The translations under genes and the position numbers were made by a program. From positions 14,758,001 through 14,822,000 of the forward strand of contig CM097885.1 of the NCBI GenBank assembly GCA_044892525.1: a DNA stretch of 64,000 bases. Reading direction: 5' to 3'. Of the stretch, positions 6,410 through 61,056 are shown piece by piece. Under the pieces are notes generated by a model that ran no database searches, was not told the origin of the DNA, and saw nothing but the letters and a program-made list of their open reading frames with translations. How positions within the stretch are numbered: the first letter of the stretch is position 1; each line of letters begins with the position of its first letter. Source of the DNA: Schmidtea polychroa (Eukaryota).

Positions 6410-7771
6410 TCAAATATAATTTTATAGTCCAACAATTCATTTTACCCAGCAAAAAGATATTATTATTATGTCTGTGATAAAAGTTACTAAAAATAAAAAG
6501 TTACCTAAATAACAGCAGTGTTGGGCGCGTACAATTAAAGCAATATTGAAATCTGATTGACATGGATTTCAGGGATTTCATAAGAGAATTGCATATATTG
6601 CCATTTGACATGCCATAGACGACTCCCCATCAAATGAACAAGCAATAGATCGGAATTCATACTTTTTTGTTGAAACTTAAATTTGTAATTTGATAATTTC
6701 GAAAATTGCTATTGGACAACGGACAAAATGGTATAGTGACAATATATGATTTGTAATGGGATATTAGTTAATGCTAAACAGTCCGAATGTGGTTGTCGAT
6801 CTTGTGAGAAATGTTCTATTAAGGACTTAAAGGGTCGGATAGAGGTTTTTAATTAACGGAATACTGATTTTGAACTTTATTTGATAAGTTGATAATATAA
6901 ATTTTTTTTCTCTATAAGAATTACCCAACATTAACACTAATTGTAAATTCCCAATACAATTGCTAATATTATGCCGATTAGATTGTGGGTTATTTAGCAA
7001 GTTTATTATAATATTGTTTATTGTTTATTTTATGCTGTACAGCATTCTATTCTCATAATATGTTTTGCGCCACTTTGTCATAGAATGAAACAAAATGTTT
7101 GTGTATTCTATCCAACCTAATCGAGACATATCGGACTGAGAAGATTTTGGTCCAATCTGACACAGACATTGTCTAATAAACAAAACCTTTGCTGTAAAAT
7201 ATAGTAGAGGTAGTCAAAGCTCAAATTGTCGACAGTCGATTCCACTTAATTGGAACACATGGAACTTAGAACTTTTTGGTGAAATAATCCGGAACCAACT
7301 GCATTTTGTATGACAATTACAATATTACATTTAGGATATCTCTTTCAACATTTGGATTGGCAAAAATAATTATAAAATTGTCCCTTGCATTGCCTTCATT
7401 TCAAAGTGATATTATGTAAACAATGAAATATAAACACGTTATTGTGGAATTTGTCCATAAGAAATGTTTCAACTAAATAATCTTTAATCTATATTCAAGT
7501 GTAAAGAAGTTTAGTATTTTCTTTTACAAAACCTTTCTTAGGTCATTAAAAGTATTTGCCTAATGGATAAATCGCTACTTTTTCTTCAATGAAATTATTG
7601 TCAAATTTGGTTCATATAGATCATTCAAAATCTGCTTACAATAAAGTTCTATTATACAACCAAAGTATTTGACTTTTATACATTATATCTAGAAATAAGA
7701 ATTAGTCAAATAATGTCATTTTAAAACTCCTTGATAAAATATAATTTTCATAAATCTAGTAAATGAAACTA

Positions 7772-8603
7772 CAGTAAAACCCCCTTATAAATTACACCTT
7801 TCTTAAAGGTACAAAAAATGAAAATGACCCACAGTTGTATTTTTAAAGGATATTGACAAGGTACATCGCTTTAAAGTACACAATTTTACTTCACTTGACC
7901 TATTCTACAAACAAAGGCCCTCAAAATATCGGATGCTCTCGGGATTGATCGATTTTGTAATAATATCAAACAATATGCAATATCCGGAGAATCGGGAACT
8001 ATAGACCAAATATCAGTTGATGAATGGAAAATGACTCTAAAACAATTCTAGTAGGATACGAGCCCCGTAATATTCCTAATGATAATGAAATTCTTGATGC
8101 GATATTAGATGATTATCTAACTAATCAAGATGATGAAGCAAATTAGAATAAGAGTGATAAATTAGAAAAAGAGAGACAAGAGAAAGATGAAAAAGTTCAA
8201 ATCATAACTGATTGTAAAGCAATGCAAATGATTTCAGAACTTGTTACTTATGCTAAAACCAAGTGATTAATTGAAAAAGAGATTCACTTATTGCAGTTTA
8301 ATGAGAAAGTAAGAAAAGTGCAAGAGAAAAACAAAAGGAAAACAAAACTTGACGAATTCTAAATTAAAAAATAATTGTTGTATCCTTTATATTTAATTTT
8401 TATCTATCTTTTCATGACTGAAACAATTTATTTGCTAGAATTCTAAACTTCACGACATTTACTATATATATAAATTTCTACAATTTTTATTGAATATTGT
8501 GTATCAAACTTTTTTATTTTTCAATATTTCTCTTATAAGTACACCTACCTTTAAGAAGTACACCCGAAGAAGAATTTTTTTCAAATAAGGTGTACTTTAT
8601 ACG
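7772..8603 (+). mobile_element. Tigger/pogo deletion derivative, copy A (right TIR truncated)
   Basis: TA|CAGTAAAACCCCCTTATAA left end; near-identical to 41128-42022. Confidence 0.88.
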
Positions 8604-26600: not shown

Positions 26601-27904
26601 CCATGATATGTTGCACAAATTTTCATCATAAAACTATTATAATAGCAACAATTTTGTTTATTTTGGAAATAATTTGTGAAATTTGAATCAGAGCTGGTTG
26701 ATAATATTGAACTTAATATCTCGAAAATTTTGTTTTAATACATTAAATTAATGAATATAGAAATTTGTTTATTGAAATAGAACAGCATGTATAAAATATG
26801 TTCGACTTATTTGATAATTCAACAATTTTATGAAGTTTAAATACAATATACTAACAGGTTAATGAAAAAAACCAATCCCGTGCAACTTAGAAATACAATA
26901 TTGCACAATTAGATTTAAATCAGAATTCAAATTCAATTAATTTCAACCAATAAAATCACTTTAAAATATAAAATTTATATAACTATTGAAATACACACTT
27001 GATAAAGTTTCTGTGTCGAAATATGATAGTTTAGTATATGATATAACCAAGAAGCTCCTTATATGAGTGGAATACGCTCCCAACTAGACCAATTTCAATC
27101 AGTGACACTATTTAACAATATTCACATTTCGAAACGAACCAGTATTTTTTAATGAATTTTTTACATCAGTTTATAGCTATTACATTCTAACATTTATTAT
27201 TGATGAAATTCAATTATCTTCAAAATCTAATTGGAATGCTAATAATGGAAAAATTGACAAATTTAATTTAACAAATCCAGAAATTTCGTACTAAAACAAA
27301 TTCTCCAATTTTACATTATACAGGGTGATTAATGAGTCTCCGTGTTTGTCACTGGTAATGTTCTGCTTCAATAAATGTTAATCGTGACGTAAGAAAATAA
27401 ACAAATCAATAAATTCACCCTGAACCGGAAATTTCAATGCAAGTAAAGGTATTTATGACTAGCACAGCTAGAGCAATTCGGGAGTATGAAGAAAGATACG
27501 AGCGGGAAGCACCTGGTTAAAAGAGAGCTTACAGATAAGACATAAGTCAGGAAGGCCATCAGATGAGAATCTCAAGAATGAAGTGATTCACTATGTCTTA
27601 GAACACAACGAAACCACAAATCAGAGACGAACGGCTACGGATATTGGAATATCCCAATCAACCGTTCACAGAATCCCGAGAAAAGAAAATATCCGTCCGT
27701 GGAGATATCAACTAATCCATGAAATCACCGACAAAGATTGCAATTCGTGAATTTATGAAGTGTGCTTACGAGAAGGACGCAATATTGAAAGTAGTATGTT
27801 ATGGGCCATCTAGACCATGGGCCCTCTGGACCACATACCCCTCCCCCCCGGGAAAATTTTTTTTTTTAAAAATAAAAGGTCAAGGTCAATTATTTTTTTT
27901 TTTA

Positions 27905-28460
27905 ATTAATTGGTCCAGCGGGCTCACACTTTTTTTCATCCCAAAAATTAATGTTCCCACCAACGGATTTTATTGGACGATACCTCATCTTAAAGCTCAG
28001 TCCAAGACCTTTCGAATGAGCTATAGGTATCTGATATATCTTTAATAGTTTTAATGTTATTAACATTTGATGACCACCATCTTTTCAAAGTTAAATTATT
28101 ATTATTTTTCAAAATATTATTAATTGGTCCAGCGGGCTCACACTTTTTTTCATCCCAAAAATTAATGTTCCCACCAACGGATTTTATTGGACGATATCTC
28201 AACTTAAAGCTCAGTCCAAGACCTTTCGAATGAGCTATAGGTATCTGATATATCTTTAATAGTTTTAATGTTATTAACAATAGATGACCACCATCTTTTG
28301 AAAGTTAAATTATTATTATTTTCCAAAATATTATTAAGTGATCTGGCGGGCTCCTACTTTTTTCCATCCCAAAAATTAATGTTCCCACCAACAGATTTTA
28401 TTGGACGATACCTCATCTTAAAGCTTAGTGCAAGACCTTTCGAATGAGCTATTAAAGGTA
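27905..28460 (+). repeat. 214-bp tandem repeat (~2.6 units), left Polinton arm
   Basis: Equivalent motifs at 27912, 28126 and 28340. Confidence 0.95.
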
Positions 28461-28511
28461 TCATCATCATTAATATTAACAAAGAGAATGACTCCCCCCA
28501 ATGACTCACCC

Positions 28512-28902
28512 AACGATGCCTAATATTTTTAGAACGATGCCTAATATTTTTAGAACGATGCCTATTATTTTTAGAACGATGCCTAATATTTTTAGAACGA
28601 TGCCTAATATTTTTAGAATGATGCCTAATATTTTTAGAATGATTACGTCATAATTTTAGAATGATGCCTAATATTTTTAGAACGATGCCTAATATTTTTA
28701 GAATGATTACGGCATAATTTTAGAACGATGCCTAATATTTTTAGAATGATTACGTCATAATTTTAGAACGATGCCTAATATTTTTAGAACGGTGCCTAAT
28801 ATTTTTAGAACGATGCCTAATATTTTTAGAATGATGCCTAATATTTTTAGAATGGTGCCTAATATTTTTAGAACGATGCCTAATATTTTTAGAACGATGC
28901 CT
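28512..28902 (+). repeat. 20/21-bp minisatellite (GATGCCTAATATTTTTAGAAC)n, left Polinton arm
   Basis: Directly visible, with GATTACGTCATAATTTTAGAA variants. Confidence 0.97.
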
Positions 28903-30750
28903 CGTTAAGATGGTAATATATGATTTTTAAGGGGGTTTTTAAAATGCTAGAAATATTTGGTGAGGGATCGGTTAATGTTTTGAATATTTATATATTCTTA
29001 TTGGTAAAATATCAAATTTTGAAGGGAAATAGTCAGCTGTGAATAGTTCCTGTGAAATTATATCGTTTTAGAGGTTGCACAGTAATTTATGTTTCAGAAC
29101 CAGTTTTAATTAATTATCCACGGTTTTATTAATGGTTAATGATCAATTTACTTGTTTTTGACAATGAGAAATTTGAAATCTTTAGAATTAATTGATATCA
29201 ATGGTTATTGCTTTAAATTATTTTTATTTAAGAAGTTATTTTATTCATTTTGGGGATATCGTTGACAAAGCTTGAGAAATATTAACTTAAAAGAATTGGA
29301 AAACAACTAAAGAAAAATGATCTTTGAAGGAAATTTATGATTTTAATTAGAAATTAAATCGGTTGAATATCTATTGAAGGAATATTGTTATCGGATGGAT
29401 AAATGATATTTTCCTAAATTACCTTATTATATTATTATTTTAATGACTAAATTAACCAATATTCATAAATTTATCGTACAAAATATCCATGTTTTGGTTA
29501 CTCAAACATCTTAAATTTCTCGCAAAGATATATTACGTCTAATGATCATCTAATTAAATTAGAAAATAATTGTTACTTTTTAATATATATTTCTAACTAA
29601 TAAGCCCCTTAATTGGATAAATGATAACCATATTTCTATTATGACTCCTTTAATTATTTTTGCCTCAAACAAATTTACTCCAAATGATAAAGAATTTAAA
29701 ATTATCAATGAATAATGACCATGTTTTCTCATATTATTAACTATTGTAACGAACATTAGATGAATAAATTAATTTTTGCTTTAAATGACTACAAAGTTAA
29801 CCAATAAATTAGTCGCTCGACATAAGTGTAAAGTTACATTTAAAATATTCACGAATTTCTGATCATCTCACTAAATTACCTAAGAATTTCTAAATGATTA
29901 ATATACCTTTGCGACATGTTGAATGTGACCAGTACCCTTGCTAGCAATACCCATAGGGGGACAGAATATTTTGTCGGATAAACTAGGAGTATATGGTCTT
30001 TATTGATATATCAAAATACTGTTATTTATAAATCAACTAAAAAATACTCAAAAATACTATATTATTTTACTGAATGATACCTTAAATGTTTTTAATATAC
30101 ATATTTCTAAAATAAATCAACAGTTCAAACCAACAACATGTATGCAAGACCACCCATTGTTAATTTATTTCCAGTGTCACATCTTTCAAGAATGCCGTGA
30201 GTGTTTAAAGAAAGCTGAGCTAAAAGAAACTTTCCAGATAACAACTCTCCTGAATGTTTTGAACAAAAATGAGCGAAATTGAGAACAAACGATTAGATGG
30301 CGATTAACTTCTGGCCACAACCCTAACAACATGAAAATTAAGATTTTAATTATTGAATTCGTTGTTTTCTGCATGGAAATACTAACAGAATATTTTTTAA
30401 TTCAAAAAATCTTCATTATAAATTTTTGAATTTAAAAAATTAAATGAAGGATATATAAGTGTACATAATATTATAATATTATATAAAATTATACTGTATT
30501 TATTAATAAATTTAGAATACATAAAATTATAATATTATAATATTTTATAAATACTATATAATAATGTTTAAATATGCTTAAATAACTAAATTGTTTAAAT
30601 ATGTTTAAATACTAAATTTAAATTATTTAAATTTAAATTAATTAAATATAATTATGATATAACTTTATTTCTTTCGTTTTAGTATCCATAAAGTAAGTAA
30701 ATAAAGAATTTACTACAATATTTTAATTATTTTACTTAGTAATGAAGAAA

Positions 30751-31003
30751 ATGAATTATATGATTATGAAGAAGATGAGTCAGACAAAATGGTGAAACAC
30801 TAAAAGACTTATGTTCTGGATTTAGAGATTTCTTATTAAAACATGAATTATATGATTATGAAGAAGATGAACCAGACAAAATGGTGAAACACTAAAGGAG
30901 TTATAGTTTTTAGATTTAGAGATTTCTTATTAAAACATGAATTATTGGATTATGAGGAAGATGAACTAAATGGTGAAACACTAAAGGAGTTATGTTCTGG
31001 ATT
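30751..31003 (+). repeat. ~92-bp tandem repeat, about 3 units, Polinton interior
   Basis: ATGAATTA..GATTATGA.GAAGATGA...AATGGTGAAACACTAAA starts at 30751, 30843 and 30937. Confidence 0.9.
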
Positions 31004-31639
31004 TTTTAAATGAATTAGCTGATTGTAGGTGTCCTTCAACATGAATGTTTACTTATCAGACTTAAATTATGTAAACTTTCTTTCAACGAATGTCAAGAAA
31101 AATGGGAAAACCGATGTTTTAACAATTAGATATTGTAAAATATTCGTTACACCTGAAGAATATTATTAATAATGTAAGACATGAATTAATTCTTTAAAAT
31201 AAATATATTATATTTAGGTATCTGTGTTTTATGGTGGGAAATGTCATTGAAAAAGTATACCACAAATAACAGTTGCCTAATAGTCAGGTAGAATTTAATT
31301 TCTGACGATAAAATGATAAATAACATCTGTAAGTTAATGGCTTTTAAATTTTAGCAATGATAGTTGACACCGCATCAGAAAACACGTCCAATTTGCAAGA
31401 TGTATTCCAAATGGCCTGATGGAGATGATAATTTTGAGATAGATTACCAGCAGAAGAGCGAGAAAAATTTGTAAATTAAATATAATAGGGTTGGGTGGGT
31501 CCTCTTTATCCCTTAATTAATATATATTTACAAGCTGATCGTCGTGGTGGGCGGTTGTAATCTAACTAGTGGGAGGCCTCTGTAAATATATATTTGTGTT
31601 AGTGAAAACATTAATTAATTTGGTTATAGTGCCAATGAC

Positions 31640-31853
31640 GCATGTATTTTGAAATTATACGTTTCGAATGTGCTGGTAGTTGACTACCCATGCTAGGCGT
31701 AATGTTCCGTACGGAAAGCTATAATGCCCAGGTTCTTCTGACCCCACTTGGGGGAGGCACAGACGACCCTTGTGGACGCGAACAAATATCCACCGTGTCT
31801 TTCAGGCACAGATATTTGGTCACTGCTCATTAGGCCTGGCAATACTAAATGCA
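31640..31853. ncRNA. Candidate structured non-coding RNA inside the Polinton
   Basis: Local GC island with many nested stems (see findings). No family recognised; expression unknown. Confidence 0.35.
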
Positions 31854-32201
31854 TAAACTTTGCCTTGTCCTCTCTTGTCTTGATTTTTATCGTTTAAATA
31901 TTAAAGTGTGTGTGATAAGTTTTATTTACTAACCTTAATAAACCATAATATGCTTTAAACTCGAAAACCCTTGTTGAGTGTGACTAGTACCCATATGAGC
32001 AATACCCATAGGGGGACAGAATATTTTGTCGGATAGACTAGGAGTATATACACCCATGTTAAACAAGGTATGTGTATATAGAATGCGTGTGTAAAATTAT
32101 TGTCAACTTCCCGTGAAGGCAAACACAGAATATTGCAAACATATAATAATTCTCTACCCCATAACTTAGTGTGTAAAAATTATTTTAGGTTTTTGACTAA
32201 T

Positions 32202-32237
<36 letters not shown>

Positions 32238-32351
32238 GTTTAATGGGTTGTATAAAAAATATTTAGGTTTTCACTAATATTGATAATAATAATTGTTAAT
32301 GGGTTGTGTGTGTATGTGTAAAAATATTTTATGTTTTTGACTAATATTTGC

Positions 32352-32391
<40 letters not shown>

Positions 32392-32984
32392 TGAAATTGT
32401 ATTTGAAAATAATTTGCGACATGTTCATTGTGAGTAGTACCCTTGTGACCAATACCCATAGGGGGACAGAATATCTTGTCGGATAAACTCGGAGTATATA
32501 TAATAATAATATTAATAATAATAATATTGATTAAAACTTTGAAAATAATTCTTTGAAAATAATACTTTGAACAATATTTGATGAAAAAGTTCCTGAAATA
32601 ATCATGAAAATGTTGAAAATCGTGAAAATATTGAAAATGTAGAAAATTATGAAAAAATTGATAATTATTAAAAAATGCAAATGATGAAAATGTTGAAAAT
32701 CCTGAAATTGACGTAGAAATTAAGTTTTATGAATAATTGCAAATAATAATAATAATAATAATAATTTTGAAAATAACATCTTCCACACGGGCGTTAATAT
32801 TTTAAAAGAAAATATTGAAAATTAAAAAATAATAATATGTAATCAACGATTTAAACAAATTATATTATTACGTATTCGATAATTAAAACAAAAAATTATA
32901 TAATCAATGATTTAAACAAATTATATAATCAACGATTTAAACAAAATTAAATTATTATGTAATCGATAATTAAAACAAAATTAT

Positions 32985-33745
32985 TAGTTCTAAAAATATT
33001 AGGCTTCGATTACGTAATAGTTCTAAAATATGTGGCATCGTTCTAAAAATATTAGTTCTAAAAATATGATGAGTCATCGTATGAGTCATCGTTCTAAAAA
33101 TGTGATGAGTCATTGTATGAGTCATCGTTCTAAAAATATTAGGCATGGTTCTAAAAGTATGACGTAATCATTCTAAAAATAAGAGGCATCATTCTAAAAA
33201 TATTAGGTATCGTTCTAAAAATAATAGGCATCGTTCTAAAAATATGACGTAATCATTCTAAAAATAAGAGGCACCATTCTAAAAATATTATGCATCATTC
33301 TAAAAATATTAGGCATCGTTCTAAAATTATGACGTAATCATTCTAAAAATATTAGGCATCATTCTAAAAATATTAGGCATCATTCTAAAAATATTAGGCA
33401 TCGTTCTAAAAGTATTAGGCATCGTTCTAAAAGTATGACGTAATCGTTCTAAAAATATTAGGCATCGTTCTAAAAATAATATGCATCGTTCTAAAAATAT
33501 GACGTAATCATTCTAAAAATAAGAGGCACCATTCTAAAAATATTATGCATCATTCTAAAAATATTAGGCATCGTTCTAAAATTATGACGTAATCATTCTA
33601 AAAATATTAGGCATCATTCTAAAAATATTAGGCATCGTTCTAAAAATACGAGGCATCGTTCTAAAAATATTAGGCATCGTTCTAAAAATATTAGGCACCA
33701 TTCTAAAAATATTAGGCATCATTCTAAAAATATTAGGCATCGTTG
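32985..33745 (-). repeat. 20/21-bp minisatellite, right Polinton arm
   Basis: Inverted counterpart of 28512-28902, roughly twice as long. Confidence 0.97.
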
Positions 33746-33789
33746 GGTGAGTCATTCTCTTTGTTAATATTAATGATGATGATACCTTC

Positions 33790-34340
33790 AATAGCTCATT
33801 CGAAAGGTCTTGCACTAAGCTTTAAGATGAGGTATCGTCCAATAAAATCCGTTGGTGGGAACATTAATTTTTGGGATGAAAAAAAGTGTGAGCATGCTGG
33901 ACCAATTAATAATATTTTGAATAATAATAATAATTTAACGTTGAAAAGATGGTGGTCATCAATTATTAATAACATTAAAACTATTAAAGATATATCAGAT
34001 ACCTATAGCTCATTCGAAAGGTCTTGGACTGAGCTTTAAGATGAGGTATCGTCCAATAAAATCCGTTGGTGGGAACATTAATTTTTGGGAAGAAAAAAAG
34101 TAGGTCCCCGCTGGATCACTTAATAATATTTTGAATAATAATAATAATTTAACGTTGAAAAGATGGTGGTCATCAATTGTTAATAACATTAAAACTATTA
34201 AAGATATATAAAATACCTATAGCTCATTCGAAAGGTCTTGGACTGAGCTTTAAGATGAGGTATCGTCCAATAAAATCCGTTGGTGGGAACATTAATTTTT
34301 GGGAAGAAAAAAAGTAGGTCCCCGCTGGATCACTTAATTA
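33790..34340 (-). repeat. 214-bp tandem repeat, right Polinton arm
   Basis: Equivalent CTGG motifs at 33897, 34111 and 34325. Confidence 0.95.
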
Positions 34341-34767
34341 AAACAAAAAATTTAATTTAAAAAATAAATGACCTTGACCTTTTATTTAAAAAAAAATTTT
34401 CCCGGGGGAGGGGGGGGGAGGGGGGGGGGGTATATGTGATCTGGCGGGGACATGATCTGGCGGGGACACATCATACTACTATTGAATATCTTGTGTAATG
34501 TTACTTTCTATGGTATATATACTTCTTTTCTTCAATTCAAAGTGTTTCATTACTTTACAAAGAGAGACAGAAACTTATGGATCACCCTGTATATAGTATC
34601 AATTTCACTCTGCAATATCCAATATTTCAATCTATAAATAACACCATAAATGCACTGTCGAAAAATGTTAATTTCTTCAGAGAATTTTTAATAACATAAA
34701 ATGAAATGAAATAATTCCAGTTGAATAATTCATAATAATATTATTTTCAAAAAGATTTTTGACTTAC

Positions 34768-38954: not shown

Positions 38955-41127
38955 TACTATCTAAAAGGCAACCTTAATATATCGGAAATGATGTTCAATT
39001 TAAAATATAATGCCAAATAGTTCTATTAAAACTGGAAAAATGTAATTTTTCCAAAATGTGTTTTAAAAATCTTTTTTTGCACAAATTGTATTGATAAGTA
39101 TTTAATTTTGCATTTTTTATTAATATTATTAGTCAATTTTAAATTTTACTTTTTTTAAATAAATGCTGAAATTTAATTTTTGGTGAATGCATCTTGTAAT
39201 ATTTGGCATTGTTTCCTTTTCTAATTTGTATATTTATGTTATATTCTGAAATTTTTGTTGGTATTTCATTACAAATCAGGTTTGTTTTTCTATAATTTTG
39301 TAATTCTTAATTTATTTTTTGCTTTTTTATAGTTCCTGGGAATTGTCACTATCACCTGGTATTACCTAAAGTTTCAAATTTTTCCCACGACTTTTTAATT
39401 TTTGAACATTTGGTTTTCAGATAACATTGAAATTTTAATCTACATATTCGATATTAAAAATGAATTCTCAAAGTTTTTATATTTATAAAAATGTCTTAAT
39501 GGTAAATATATAAAATAGAATTATTTAAGCTACTCTTTGTAAAACATTCTTAATTTTTTGTAATTTTAAGTTTCATTCTAACCAGTACAAATTTTAAATG
39601 AAAAAAAACATTTAAAAAATAGTTTATAAAATTTTAATATGTTACATAATTATTGTATGATTTTTTAACTTTCTCTTACATATATCAATTCTGAATTTGG
39701 TATGGCATTTAATAAACTATTTTTTTTGTGAAAATTAAGTCAATACAAATTGGAAAAGTAGATATCTAAATTTTCTTATTTAATACTACATCCAAGCCAG
39801 TTCAGTATTTATAAATTTTTTCCGCCAAAAATATGTCACCAGTGTGCACAACACTTACGTCTTAACACAGAAAATTGTATTAGATCTGAAATGTATTTCA
39901 AAAATAAACTTCTTCAATCCCTTCAAGATCTAAAGATAATCATTCAACATGTTTTTTAATTTTCTCTATATTATATCATTGTTATCTGACCCGTCAAAAC
40001 AAAAACTTCCCCCTCTGAAAATAACGGTATTAAAACTAACACCAATGTTTTCCCCAATTGTTCTCGATAATAATTTTATGGTTTTCCTTCATTTTTCGCT
40101 GCATTAACTTACATTTTGTAGACTTCATTATGTTGCTCTACTCGCGAATTTCCATTTTAGTAGTATTCGATTTTGTCGCTTTTTTAAATTTTCTGAAAGC
40201 CTATTTAATACATTCTTTAGATGACGGCATAAATTTTGTAGAAATATTTTATAAATTATCATTTGGTAAATATTAGTTTTATTAATTTTGAGATAGTAGT
40301 CTTTCCATTGTGTAATAAGGCGATATTACACTTAATGATTTTTCTTTTCTTTTTTTATGGAAAATACAATATTCCATTCTGATTCTGAAAACATGTAATA
40401 ATATAATCTAAAACTTTAACTCACTGGTTTCAGTGGAGCATATTCCAAAATGAGAGATGGCACTTATCATCGATAAAAATTTAAATGTGGCACATTCAAA
40501 CACACTGCAGTTAAAGTGGTGACATAAATCTTTAATAAATAAATAAATATAATTAAAACCCATTAGAAAAAATGAAGAAATTAACGTTTTCATTGGAATC
40601 ATTAATATCTTATGATGTCTAAGCTCCTATAATTTCAAGAATGGAAGTTTAAAGAAAATTCCTCGTGAACGATACTTTACAGTGAATTTTGTTTGAGATT
40701 TCTAATTTTTTAGCTGTTGAAATATCTAGATTACACGCTGGCTTAGACAGATGAAAACCTATAAGATTTTTTATATGACAGACAGAAGTGCCTAAAAAGA
40801 GAAAGACTAGCACGAAACAATTAATCTGATATTTATAATTTTATAGCAACAGGAATTTTTTGCCAACGATTCTTAAATATGTTAAACATTAATATATTAA
40901 TATTTGAATTAATTTATTTTTATTAAGGCCATTTATATATTTTAATTTAGCATATTTATCTTTTGGTTTCATTTTTGATCTTTATTTCAATTCAATAATT
41001 TTCATATCAATATTTGTAATATAATGTACCTTATTGTTTTGATCTATAGCCAGGCAATTCCACTTATGATGTCATTTCCCATTTTTAAGTTTGTAACTTA
41101 CATGATAGATAATAAAATGCATCAATA

Positions 41128-42022
41128 CAGTAAAACCCCCTTATAAAGAACACCTTTCTTAAAGGTACAAAAAATGAAAAAGGCCCACATTTGTATTTTT
41201 AAAGGATATTGACTCTTTATACAAGGTACATCGCTTTAAAGTACACAATTTTACTTCACTTGACCTATTCTACAAACAAAGGCCCTCAAGATATCGGATG
41301 CTCTCGTCATTGATCGATCAGACTTTAATGCCAGTGAAGGATGATTAGATAAGTTCAAAAGTCGTCATAATATCAAACAATATGCAATATCCGGAGAATC
41401 GGGAACTATAGACCAAATATCAGTTGATGAATGGAAAATGACTCTAAAACAATTCTAGTAGGATACGAGCCCCGTAATATTCCTAATGATAATGAAATTC
41501 TTGATGCCATATTAGATGATTATCTAACTAATCAAGATGATGAAGCAAATTAGAATAAGAGTGATAAATTAGAAAAAGAGAGACAAGAGAAAGATGAAAA
41601 AGTTCAAATCATAACTGATTGTAAAGCAATGCAAATGATTTCAGAACTTGTTACTTATGCTAAAACCAAGTGATTAATTGAAAAAGAGATTCACTTATTG
41701 CAGTTTAATGAGAAAGTAAGAAAAGTGCAAAAGAAAAACAAAAGGCAAACAAAACTTGACGAATTCTAAATTAAAAAATAATTGTTGTATCCTTTATATT
41801 TAATTTTTATCTATCTTTTCATGACTGAAACAATTTATTTGCTAGAATTCTAAACTTCACGACATTTACTATATATATAAATTTCTACAATTTTTATTGA
41901 ATATTGTGTATCTAACTTTTTTATTTTTCAATATTTCTCTTATAAATACATCTACCTTTAAAAAGTACACCCGAAGAAAAATTTTTTGCTAATAGGGCGT
42001 ACTTTATACGGAGGTTTTACTG
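41128..42022 (+). mobile_element. Tigger/pogo deletion derivative, copy B (both ends present)
   Basis: TA|CAGTAAAACC...GGTTTTACTG|TA; CENP-B-type HTH relic FNASEG*LDKFKSRHNIKQYAISGES. Confidence 0.92.
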
Positions 42023-58589: not shown

Positions 58590-61056
58590 TATAAGTGGGC
58601 AGTACAGCGTGACGAAAGTTCGCTTAAAAATCAAGGAAAAATCCGGCAAAGGACAAGATGATTCAATGAAAGGGCTTTCTAATGTCTAAAGATCAGAGGT
58701 CTCAGATCATCGAAAATAGACACCGATCATGCCAGGACATGCTCCTACTGATCATCAGACGATATGATGGAAGAGGTTTAAAAGAAGTAGAAAAATGATC
58801 AGGGATATAGAAGAATGGCTGCTGACAAATGGACAGCGATTGACAAGCACTTTCGATATGTTATTGGTCGAAGAAGCAAAGACATTGTGGGGAAACGTTA
58901 GAGAAACAGAAATAACAGATGTAACCACACCTGATCAGTTAGTTCTTTAGTCAAGTTAAAGTTCGTTTACCATTGAAAATAATTTATATGATCTACAAAT
59001 AGATGGACTTATGCAATTTCGTCAATCGATTTAGGCCAGGTGTATTATCAAGTGGAGTTGACTCCAGAAATTCAATAAATGACTGCATTCAGTACAAGAG
59101 AAGGACAATATTGCTTCAATAGACTACTGCTTGACTTAGCAACAGGCTCTGTGACATTCCAGAGACTGATGCACACAGAGCTAGAAGGAATGCTATTCAA
59201 GGGAGTAGTAGTTTATCTAGATGATATCTTGATATATGGAAAAAGTCAAAAAGACCACGATGAACTATTAATGGAAGTATTCAGAAAAATTCAAGTGGCA
59301 GGACTGAAGATAAATCCAAAAAGATGCAAATTCAATAAAACAGAATTGTTTTTCCTTGGTCACACAGTTAATGAGAAGGGTATTCAGACAAACAGAAAGA
59401 AAGTGGAAGAGATCGAAAAAGCAGAAGTTTCAAAATGTTCAAAACAATTGATATCGTTTCTCGGACTAACAAACTACTTGAGAAGATTCATCAAAGACTA
59501 TGCCAAAATCGCCGAACTATTATACGCTGCAACATTAGCCGAAAATGCAAGAAACAATCCAACTCTGTTTACGATGTTGTGAGATCTGCGCTAAGAGAAA
59601 AATCGATCAGACAAGAACCAAGGAAACATTTATTCCTAGATATAGCTCTGAATTCCTAGAACAGATTGTTATAGATGTGGCTTACATGAAAATAAACGCC
59701 ATAAAAAATAAATGGTAGTAATGATGAACCGGTTTAGCAAACTGATTTCTTTAACTGCAATCACAAAGCAAGACTAAGGGAAAATTTTCAAAACGATACT
59801 TAATAGTTGGATCAATCGATTTGGAAAACCGAAGAGCATTTTAACAGATAGAGGCCGCAATTTCGAAGGGAATTTCATAAAACAGAAGCTACAGAAACTT
59901 GGAATCAAACAGGAATTCAGCCCACCTTACCAGCACCAATCAAATGGTTTAGCCGAACGAGCCATACGAACGATAATAGATCTTATTACAGCAACATTGG
60001 CAGGTGGATGTGAAGAGATTAACTGGCACGAACTTCTACCTAGAATAGAGTTTACTATAAATAGCAGTCGACAAAGTGCTACAGGTTTATTACCATTTGA
60101 GATAATTTATGGACTAGGACTCTAACCTGAAGCAAGCCGAGATATCAAGAAGCGAAAGAATGGAATACGCGACATTTAACTCGAGTAAAGCCGCAGACAC
60201 TATGAGAGATAAAGAGGGGCACTCGTGTTTTCGAGGTGGGGGAGGAGGTACTCGTACGTAAAGAGCCGCAGAACAGGCACAAGGATGGTATGCAATACGA
60301 TGGCCCATATAAAATCTTCAGATTTCTATCACCTCATTGAGTCGAACTACATTCACAAGAAGGAACGAAAGAAAGAAGAATCGAGTGGTTGAAGAAGTGG
60401 AAAAAGTCTTAAGCAGAGGAAAGTTAGATATCTGAAGTTGTTTTAATAATTGAGCTTCCGCGTTTTTGTGAAAAATTAAATACTTGTAATTTAATAATTT
60501 TATGTCAGATATAAAGATGGATTTAAAGTTGGATTTAACTATATAATCCTTTTTATATTTATATTACGCTAACATTTCAATTCAAGTAACTTATCCTACA
60601 ATTATTTTAAGTTATTCTTATATTTATTTTTAATTAAATTCGGGATTTTATAGCCACTATCATTCTTATATTTAGATTTTTTAAATTTAATTATTCTCGG
60701 TTGTTTTAATCAATCGATTCGTTAAACTACGTTTATATTTATATTTATGTTTTTATCCACGTAATGGATATGAAATATATTAATTAATTTGATTTTTTTT
60801 TGTTATGCACTTTAGATTCTTAAAGGAGATATTATTTTGCATTGCTGTACTAAACAGTCTTGTCAGCGAGGGCGAGTCACTGGTTTCTGACTTTAATGTT
60901 TGGTTTCCTAAGTCGCTTTCACTGGTCAAGGCTGATTGAAACGACACGATCATCATGCTTCCACACCTGATCAGTTAGTTCTTTAGTCAAGTTAAAGTTC
61001 GTTTACCATTGAAAATAATTTATATGATCTACAAATAGATGGACTTATGCAATTTC
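58590..61056 (+). mobile_element. Gypsy/Ty3 LTR retrotransposon, internally deleted and decayed
   Basis: gag-like start at 58796-58924; RT at 59020-59580 (SIDL, TAFST, YLDDILIYG, FLGH, FLGLTNY); integrase at 59660-60410 (TDRGRNF, HQSNGLAERAIRT, GPY); purine tract near 60412-60423 followed by LTR-like sequence. Outer boundaries approximate. Confidence 0.92.

Follow-up and report, generated by a model that had tools for sequence, protein, structure and literature searches.

The question raised by this locus is whether a Polinton that lacks intact core genes carries a structured RNA of its own and, if so, where that RNA came from. In the window, the 64,000-base stretch of Schmidtea polychroa DNA analysed here (GCA_044892525.1, CM097885.1:14,758,001-14,822,000; coordinates are window-relative), a preliminary description had flagged an island of compatible stems and proposed that a coreless Polinton encodes a plus-strand structured RNA. 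That proposal is plausible, but it overlooked the only part of the putative RNA that can be identified, a copy of the Alu 5' domain of host 7SL RNA lying 100 bases upstream of the flagged stems.

The coreless Polinton and its module

The host genome is AT-rich and comprises 781 Mb. The flagged stems belong to a Polinton-type element of 6.7 kb (6,691 bases; 27790-34480, no strand assigned) that is delimited by AGTAGT...ACTACT ends and a 6-bp target duplication (ATTGAA), carries modular terminal inverted repeats (TIRs) made of 214-bp and 21-bp repeats, and contains no match to the core genes. Gene-bearing relatives possess the same ends and 6-bp duplications. The element combines the AG...CT ends, TIRs and 6-bp target duplication of a non-autonomous Polinton with the existence, in the same genome, of a gene-bearing partner sharing its ends, in agreement with the earlier assignment of the locus to a Polinton without intact core genes. 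Alignment of the segment to a protein-coding ORF of full-length copies had been named as grounds for giving up the RNA proposal; the module described below matches none of the ORFs of a pPolB-bearing relative, and its interpretation as decayed coding sequence was rejected for this reason.

The flagged stems constitute the rear half of a module of about 430 bases (31467-31900, plus strand), which is common to two Polinton lineages that cannot be aligned to each other in their flanks; the stems are real, but the structured unit had been drawn too narrowly. The genome contains about 1,700-1,900 copies of this module. Specifically, a 23-mer from the Alu head has 2,188 exact genome matches, a figure that includes the host genes and therefore corresponds to about 1,860 element-type heads, while 23-mers from the 3' domain and the flank have 1,691 and 1,395 exact matches, respectively. 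Forty position-ordered copies, chosen by 23-mer only among the matches listed, all have Polinton-arm flanks; the full 3' domain is present at 88-100% identity in 36 of them and truncated in the other four, and one sub-lineage bears a 17-base deletion and a loop mutation in the module. When copies were picked by flank, the Alu motif was found to be kept in 73 of 81.

A second, older lineage has the module with sharp edges. Among 29 loci retrieved by means of a diverged copy, 14 keep the module but have flanks that give no BLAST match to the element, and two of seven older-lineage loci that were extended show a different, AGTAGGTAG-type Polinton end about 2 kb downstream. An apparent third carrier family at L199 was discarded, the locus being a copy of the older lineage that is followed, about 230 bases downstream, by the insertion of another Polinton. 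Exact-pattern scans for the module gave 0 matches in viral contigs and 0 in metagenome contigs.

Eleven gene-bearing copies that share the ends of the element were compared (10 of 40 integrase matches plus the query locus). Of these, six have pPolB and no module while five have the module arm in the place of pPolB, and the module is missing from all six further pPolB loci of other families. This exclusivity may reflect shared descent, the copies being related; at one locus (L102) the module is not at the expected place. Elements of 14-17 kb without pPolB (L170-L171, L174-L175, L178-L179, L188-L189 and L040-L041) have integrase, ATPase, capsid-like, protease-like and TBP-like ORFs that hardly differ from their counterparts in complete copies. 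The TBP-like protein encoded by the Polintons of this genome has 159 residues (L041:5343-5819, plus strand; PF00352, E 1.4e-15), and homologues at 52-62% are present in six of six other pPolB loci (P1-P6, L110-L127).

Many module copies lie inside palindromes of 10-14 kb with true 6-bp duplications and the module in both arms. Near-perfect palindromic elements of this size, with arms up to 99.9% alike and genuine 6-bp duplications, were observed at L031-L034 and L042-L043, and the presence of such duplications led to the rejection of an assembly artefact for three of the palindromic copies (A, B and F); the mirror symmetry of copies D and H runs past the element ends because both sit inside larger palindromes. 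Inverted pPolB pairs 7-10 kb apart are present as well, a pattern which suggests that fold-back copying is general in this genome.

Other features of the window were also noted. The upstream arm of the element (30000-31474) contains exon-like and acidic-repeat stretches with splice-like signals and ends at TAA 31472; its exon-like stretches have frameshifts common to several copies and lack third-position bias, and the arm may be the remnant of a spliced gene. A repeat of 87 bases that includes a GACAGAATATTTTGTC hairpin (29908-29994, 31963-32049 and 32413-32499) recurs in the arms of complete and coreless copies alike and may be a recombination or protein-binding site. Elsewhere in the window, dispersed direct repeats occur at 7770-8256 and 41126-41663, and at 58925-59020 and 60961-61056.

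The 7SL-derived Alu head and its surroundings

The Alu head occupies 31534-31578 (plus strand). Rfam at its gathering threshold returned 0 matches across the window; an E-value scan placed RF00017 (the metazoan SRP Alu domain) at 31534 with 26.7 bits and E 2.5e-4, below the RF00017 gathering score of 70. Alignment to nt 1-45 of host 7SL RNA is gap-free, with 34 of 45 positions identical, a level matched by none of 1000 shuffles. Despite the 11 substitutions, every one of the 13 stem pairs is retained, in part by double changes (G5-C22 to A-U, A6-U21 to U-G and A10-U17 to C-G), and simulation puts the chance that 11 random substitutions would spare all 13 pairs at 5e-5 to 2.3e-4. The head contains helices 2-4, the G4-U23-G24 triad (U-turn) and the complementary loops UGGU/ACUA; G4, U23 and G24 are all intact, loop-loop complementarity is retained at U12-A35, G13-U34, G14-C33 and U15-A32, and host C36 is replaced by G. 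Judged by sequence and retained pairing, the head is homologous to nt 1-45 of host 7SL RNA, and the compensatory changes in it may have arisen before capture, should the donor 7SL have been ancestral or foreign. One study names G4, U23 and G24 as the SRP9/14-binding triad (PMC12265939), and another describes a 46-nt minimal domain, to which the piece retained in the module corresponds, that binds SRP9/14, suffices for Alu mobilisation and remains functional under a Pol II promoter (PMC11760393).

The host 7SL genes are repeated in tandem in 593-bp units and the U6 genes in 793-bp units, both in long arrays (C2:31.93-31.99 Mb and C2:142.94-142.98 Mb). The host-type 7SL head motif has about 310-324 matches in the genome, and all 100 host-type heads among the matches listed sit in the tandem array. 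A search of the genome for intermediate or more diverged Alu heads yielded three matches, all ordinary family copies, and a search of the host genome for SRP9 and SRP14 genes, itself flagged as uninformative, yielded no match.

The unconstrained minimum free energy (MFE) structure of 31465-31640 includes the entire Alu fold, closed by a 14-bp stem. The arms of this stem (a leader arm at 31519-31532 and a second arm at 31581-31594, both plus strand) form a perfect 14-bp inverted repeat around the head, one of two in the 64 kb, and are predicted to supply a surrogate helix 5. The probability of the junction-closing helix is 0.00 from G1 alone and 0.09-0.46 with the 22-base leader (four of four copies tested), compared with 0.53 in host 7SL, and the probability of Alu helix 4 is low in the element, at most 0.24 versus 0.87 in the host gene. 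The leader stem has no compensatory changes and is broken or lost in some sub-lineages.

A TATA-like box, TATAATAG (TATAAAAG in some copies), which may act as a promoter, lies 53 bases before the head (31481-31488, plus strand); its variants TATAATAGG and TATAAAAGG occur in 51 and 4 of 61 matches, respectively. A U6-type promoter was ruled out by the lack of likeness between the host U6 upstream region and the upstream block of the module. At the opposite end, a pyrimidine tract (31858-31888, plus strand) ending in T5 (31884-88) resembles the terminal T5 of host 7SL and is a putative terminator. Further Pol III signals are mixed: a consensus B box is absent, and a hairpin at 31640-31673 (plus strand), differing in length between lineages, contains a weak B-box-like GTTTCGAAT and an internal T4, which reaches at least T5 in the older lineage and in 5 of 37 matches, so that simple Pol III read-through is somewhat disfavoured.

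The folded 3' domain and the competing explanations

The 3' domain flagged earlier (31675-31841, plus strand) has a predicted multibranch fold with a closing stem between 31692-704 and 31828-40. The GC island is evident (47% GC over 31633-31853 versus 19-33% in the flanks), and the local hairpins that had been listed are present, namely GGTAG/CTACC (31675-88), TTCC/GGAA (31705-16), the CTTC/GAGG and CCCC/GGGG stems (31735-57), and CAAATATC/GATATTTG (31783-818) with GTGTCT/AGGCAC inside. A long-range TGCCCAGG/CCTGGCA helix from the same list is absent from the MFE structure because it is mutually exclusive with the pairing of GCTAGGC (31692-98) to GCCTGGC (31834-40) found there, and the outer closure that had been described does pair, but over only 4 bp.

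On the plus strand the flagged stretch folds at -70 kcal/mol (z -2.89; 1 of 200 shuffles as good) compared with z -1.02 on the minus strand, and the core (31692-31840) reaches z -3.27. Comparison with shuffles, the check that had been suggested, thus favours the fold at these chosen boundaries but gives z -0.9 to -1.0 over the island in fixed 150-nt tiles (28901-33100, 25 shuffles per tile), in which AT-rich tiles elsewhere descend to z -3.6 and -4.7; the fold of 31534-31890 has z -0.88. The folding signal of the flagged stretch depends on the boundaries chosen and is fragile. Support for the flagged stems is purely thermodynamic; that for the Alu fold, which comes from comparison with the host, is strong. 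Rfam scans by E-value, run on the 3' domain and on an older copy, returned chance matches, none better than E 0.97, and name no family for the flagged stretch. A tRNA-headed folded unit of 370 bases was observed in another Polinton family (L266:3377-3745, L199:2940-3290 (-)), and its homology to the 3' domain was considered and rejected (nhmmer best E 1.4).

As read from the copies, the evidence for selection on the module is mixed. Across 40 copies and the window copy, diversity is 0.015-0.033 in the module versus 0.066-0.092 in the flanks, with far fewer gaps, and some flank bins equal the module in conservation. In the young lineage the flanks have many shared indels and the module few, and the shared-to-singleton ratio of the 3' domain equals that of the flanks; in the older lineage no excess conservation of the module was found (0.073 versus 0.04-0.11 in well-aligned flanks). 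The copy alignment comprised 30 chosen copies of 89 distinct ones, four truncated copies being left out. Covariation of the flagged stems, which had been put forward as a check, gave no significant signal among the copies of this genome: three pairs have double changes, with 52 of 500 shuffles as high, and RNAalifold reports covariation at 0 of 76 pairs. Predicted pairs are broken by 9 of 14 shared variants and 45 of 70 singletons (p=1). A few compensatory cases occur in the module, such as A31702-U31830 to U-G in L199, and a whole-module Fisher test gave p 7e-5, a value that is inflated by misaligned truncated rows and is given no weight here.

These null results for covariation and for shared versus singleton variants are what would be expected if the module were an inert hitchhiker, a 7SL fragment captured once with GC-richer neighbouring DNA, recombined between two Polinton lineages and multiplied by the success of its carriers, with the fold a mere relic. 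The boundary-dependent z-score, the truncation of the 3' domain in 4 of 40 copies and the sub-lineage with its 17-base deletion and loop mutation fit the same account, as does the lack of the module in six of six pPolB-bearing family members and six of six other pPolB loci, an absence which means that it is dispensable for Polinton replication. Such an origin is the main rival explanation, if a rather unlikely one: the head has lost no pair in spite of 10-11 differences from the host in 45 bases, the retained 7SL piece ends exactly at a structural domain border, and the contrast in shared indels between young-lineage flanks and module is not readily explained by hitchhiking.

A second explanation extends the 7SL relationship to the whole module, which would then be a heavily remodelled 7SL gene acting at the level of DNA or chromatin, for instance by forming a boundary bound by Pol III/TFIIIC or a single-strand fold while the element is copied, with the RNA immaterial. 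The T5 end agrees with this proposal, and so does a weak colinear likeness between the S domain of the host and the 3' domain (equalled by 2-88 of 1000 shuffles over four copies and by 5 of 1000 in a separate pairwise comparison), although an unrelated tile scores higher and nhmmer gives no S-domain match. The missing clean B box and the internal T5 of older copies also count against it, and the many G-U pairs among those retained favour RNA over DNA, so that this explanation appears quite improbable. Least probable is the suggestion, raised in part by the preliminary description, that the 3' domain belongs to a new class of self-cleaving ribozyme or IRES, to which the Alu head would be an accessory. 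The multibranch fold and the core z of -3.3 can be cited in its favour. Against it stand simple motif scans of three copies that found no hammerhead or HDV-like core, the want of any Rfam match better than E 0.97, a sole internal ORF (47 codons) that is frameshifted in many copies, the lack of a conserved ORF downstream of the module, and the absence of an obvious need for self-cleavage in an element that replicates as DNA.

Proposed function and relation to known systems

The reading we prefer, to which we assign a probability of roughly 0.5, is that the module encodes a non-coding RNA of the element itself, with an Alu head that would recruit SRP9/14 and thereby ribosomes. It builds upon features observed directly, namely the extent, copy number and Polinton setting of the module, the 7SL origin of the head and the retention of its base pairs. 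Judging from the usual TATA-to-start spacing and that of the host U6 gene, transcription driven by the TATA-like box would start about 22-26 bases upstream of the Alu head (before G1); within the same reading, a start by RNA polymerase III at Alu G1 is a substantial possibility, though not the favoured one. The leader would pair with the bases just after the Alu head, producing a natural circular permutation of helix 5, and the RNA would continue to about T5 through the folded 3' domain, which would serve as a scaffold or stabiliser. The head would bind host SRP9/14 and, through them, ribosomes. By analogy with the inhibition of translation initiation by Alu RNPs (PMC4357698), the likely effect would be a damping of host translation initiation in cells where a helper Polinton copies elements, a part comparable to the one played by adenovirus VA RNA.

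A more elaborate version, which we regard as doubtful, holds that satellite Polintons without a polymerase turned a captured 7SL Alu head into a functional RNA gene, permuted by its leader and recruiting SRP9/14 and ribosomes, and that this RNA favours the satellite through translation damping or through docking on ribosomes that are making the helper polymerase. Alu RNA docks in this manner on ribosomes making LINE-1 ORF2p; were the satellite version true, a virus-like DNA parasite that itself exploits a parasite would have arrived independently at the Alu strategy.

7SL-derived Alu heads are known to power the SINEs of primates and rodents as well as BC200. A literature search, largely confined to open-access papers, returned no report of a 7SL derivative in any DNA transposon, Polintons included. 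Should the module RNA be made and bind SRP9/14, a virus-like DNA element would have captured the same 45-base module independently and would display a natural circular permutation of a fold permuted so far only by engineers; the locus would also bear on whether Polintons carry VA-like RNAs. Under the same conditions, the products of about 1,800 module copies could compete for SRP9/14 with those of about 310 host 7SL genes. Were the module inert, the capture would be a curiosity of minor importance.

The module is neither an SRP RNA, nor a SINE, nor a known ribozyme. It shares with metazoan SRP (7SL) RNA (RF00017) a homologous nt 1-45 in which helices, U-turn triad and loop complementarity are retained, and differs from it in lacking the S domain, which the Rfam model skips, the SRP54-binding helix 8 motif, present in the host gene but in none of three module copies, and the long 5'-3' helix 5, and in having its head enclosed by an upstream leader stem. 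As in Alu and B1 SINEs and BC200, an Alu head is followed by unrelated sequence. Unlike 7SL-derived SINEs, however, the module moves only within a DNA element, as judged from the Polinton-arm flanks of all 40 sampled copies, and it has neither an A-tail nor a duplication of its own, ending instead in the pyrimidine tract and T5. BC200 itself has reportedly been captured by a human poxvirus.

The comparison with adenovirus VA RNA drawn in the preliminary description stays an analogy. Both are folded non-coding units with a T-run end, and the carrier is a relative of the same viral lineage; nevertheless, against the 160 nt and possible tRNA derivation given for VA RNA in PMC7589676, the module RNA has a predicted length of about 355-380 nt and is derived from 7SL. 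In addition, the module has no clean box B and resides in copies that lack pPolB, not in complete ones. In the placement of the 3' strand of helix 5 ahead of G1, the module resembles the circularly permuted Alu RNA made for crystallography (PMC4238359), with the distinction that the construct is artificial whereas the arrangement in the module would be natural and is, as yet, predicted only. Finally, the carriers share with non-autonomous Polinton/Maverick derivatives their AG...CT ends, 6-bp target duplications and helper dependence, but differ from them in that many are near-perfect palindromes of 10-14 kb and that some keep integrase, ATPase and capsid-like genes, with the module arm standing where complete copies have pPolB.
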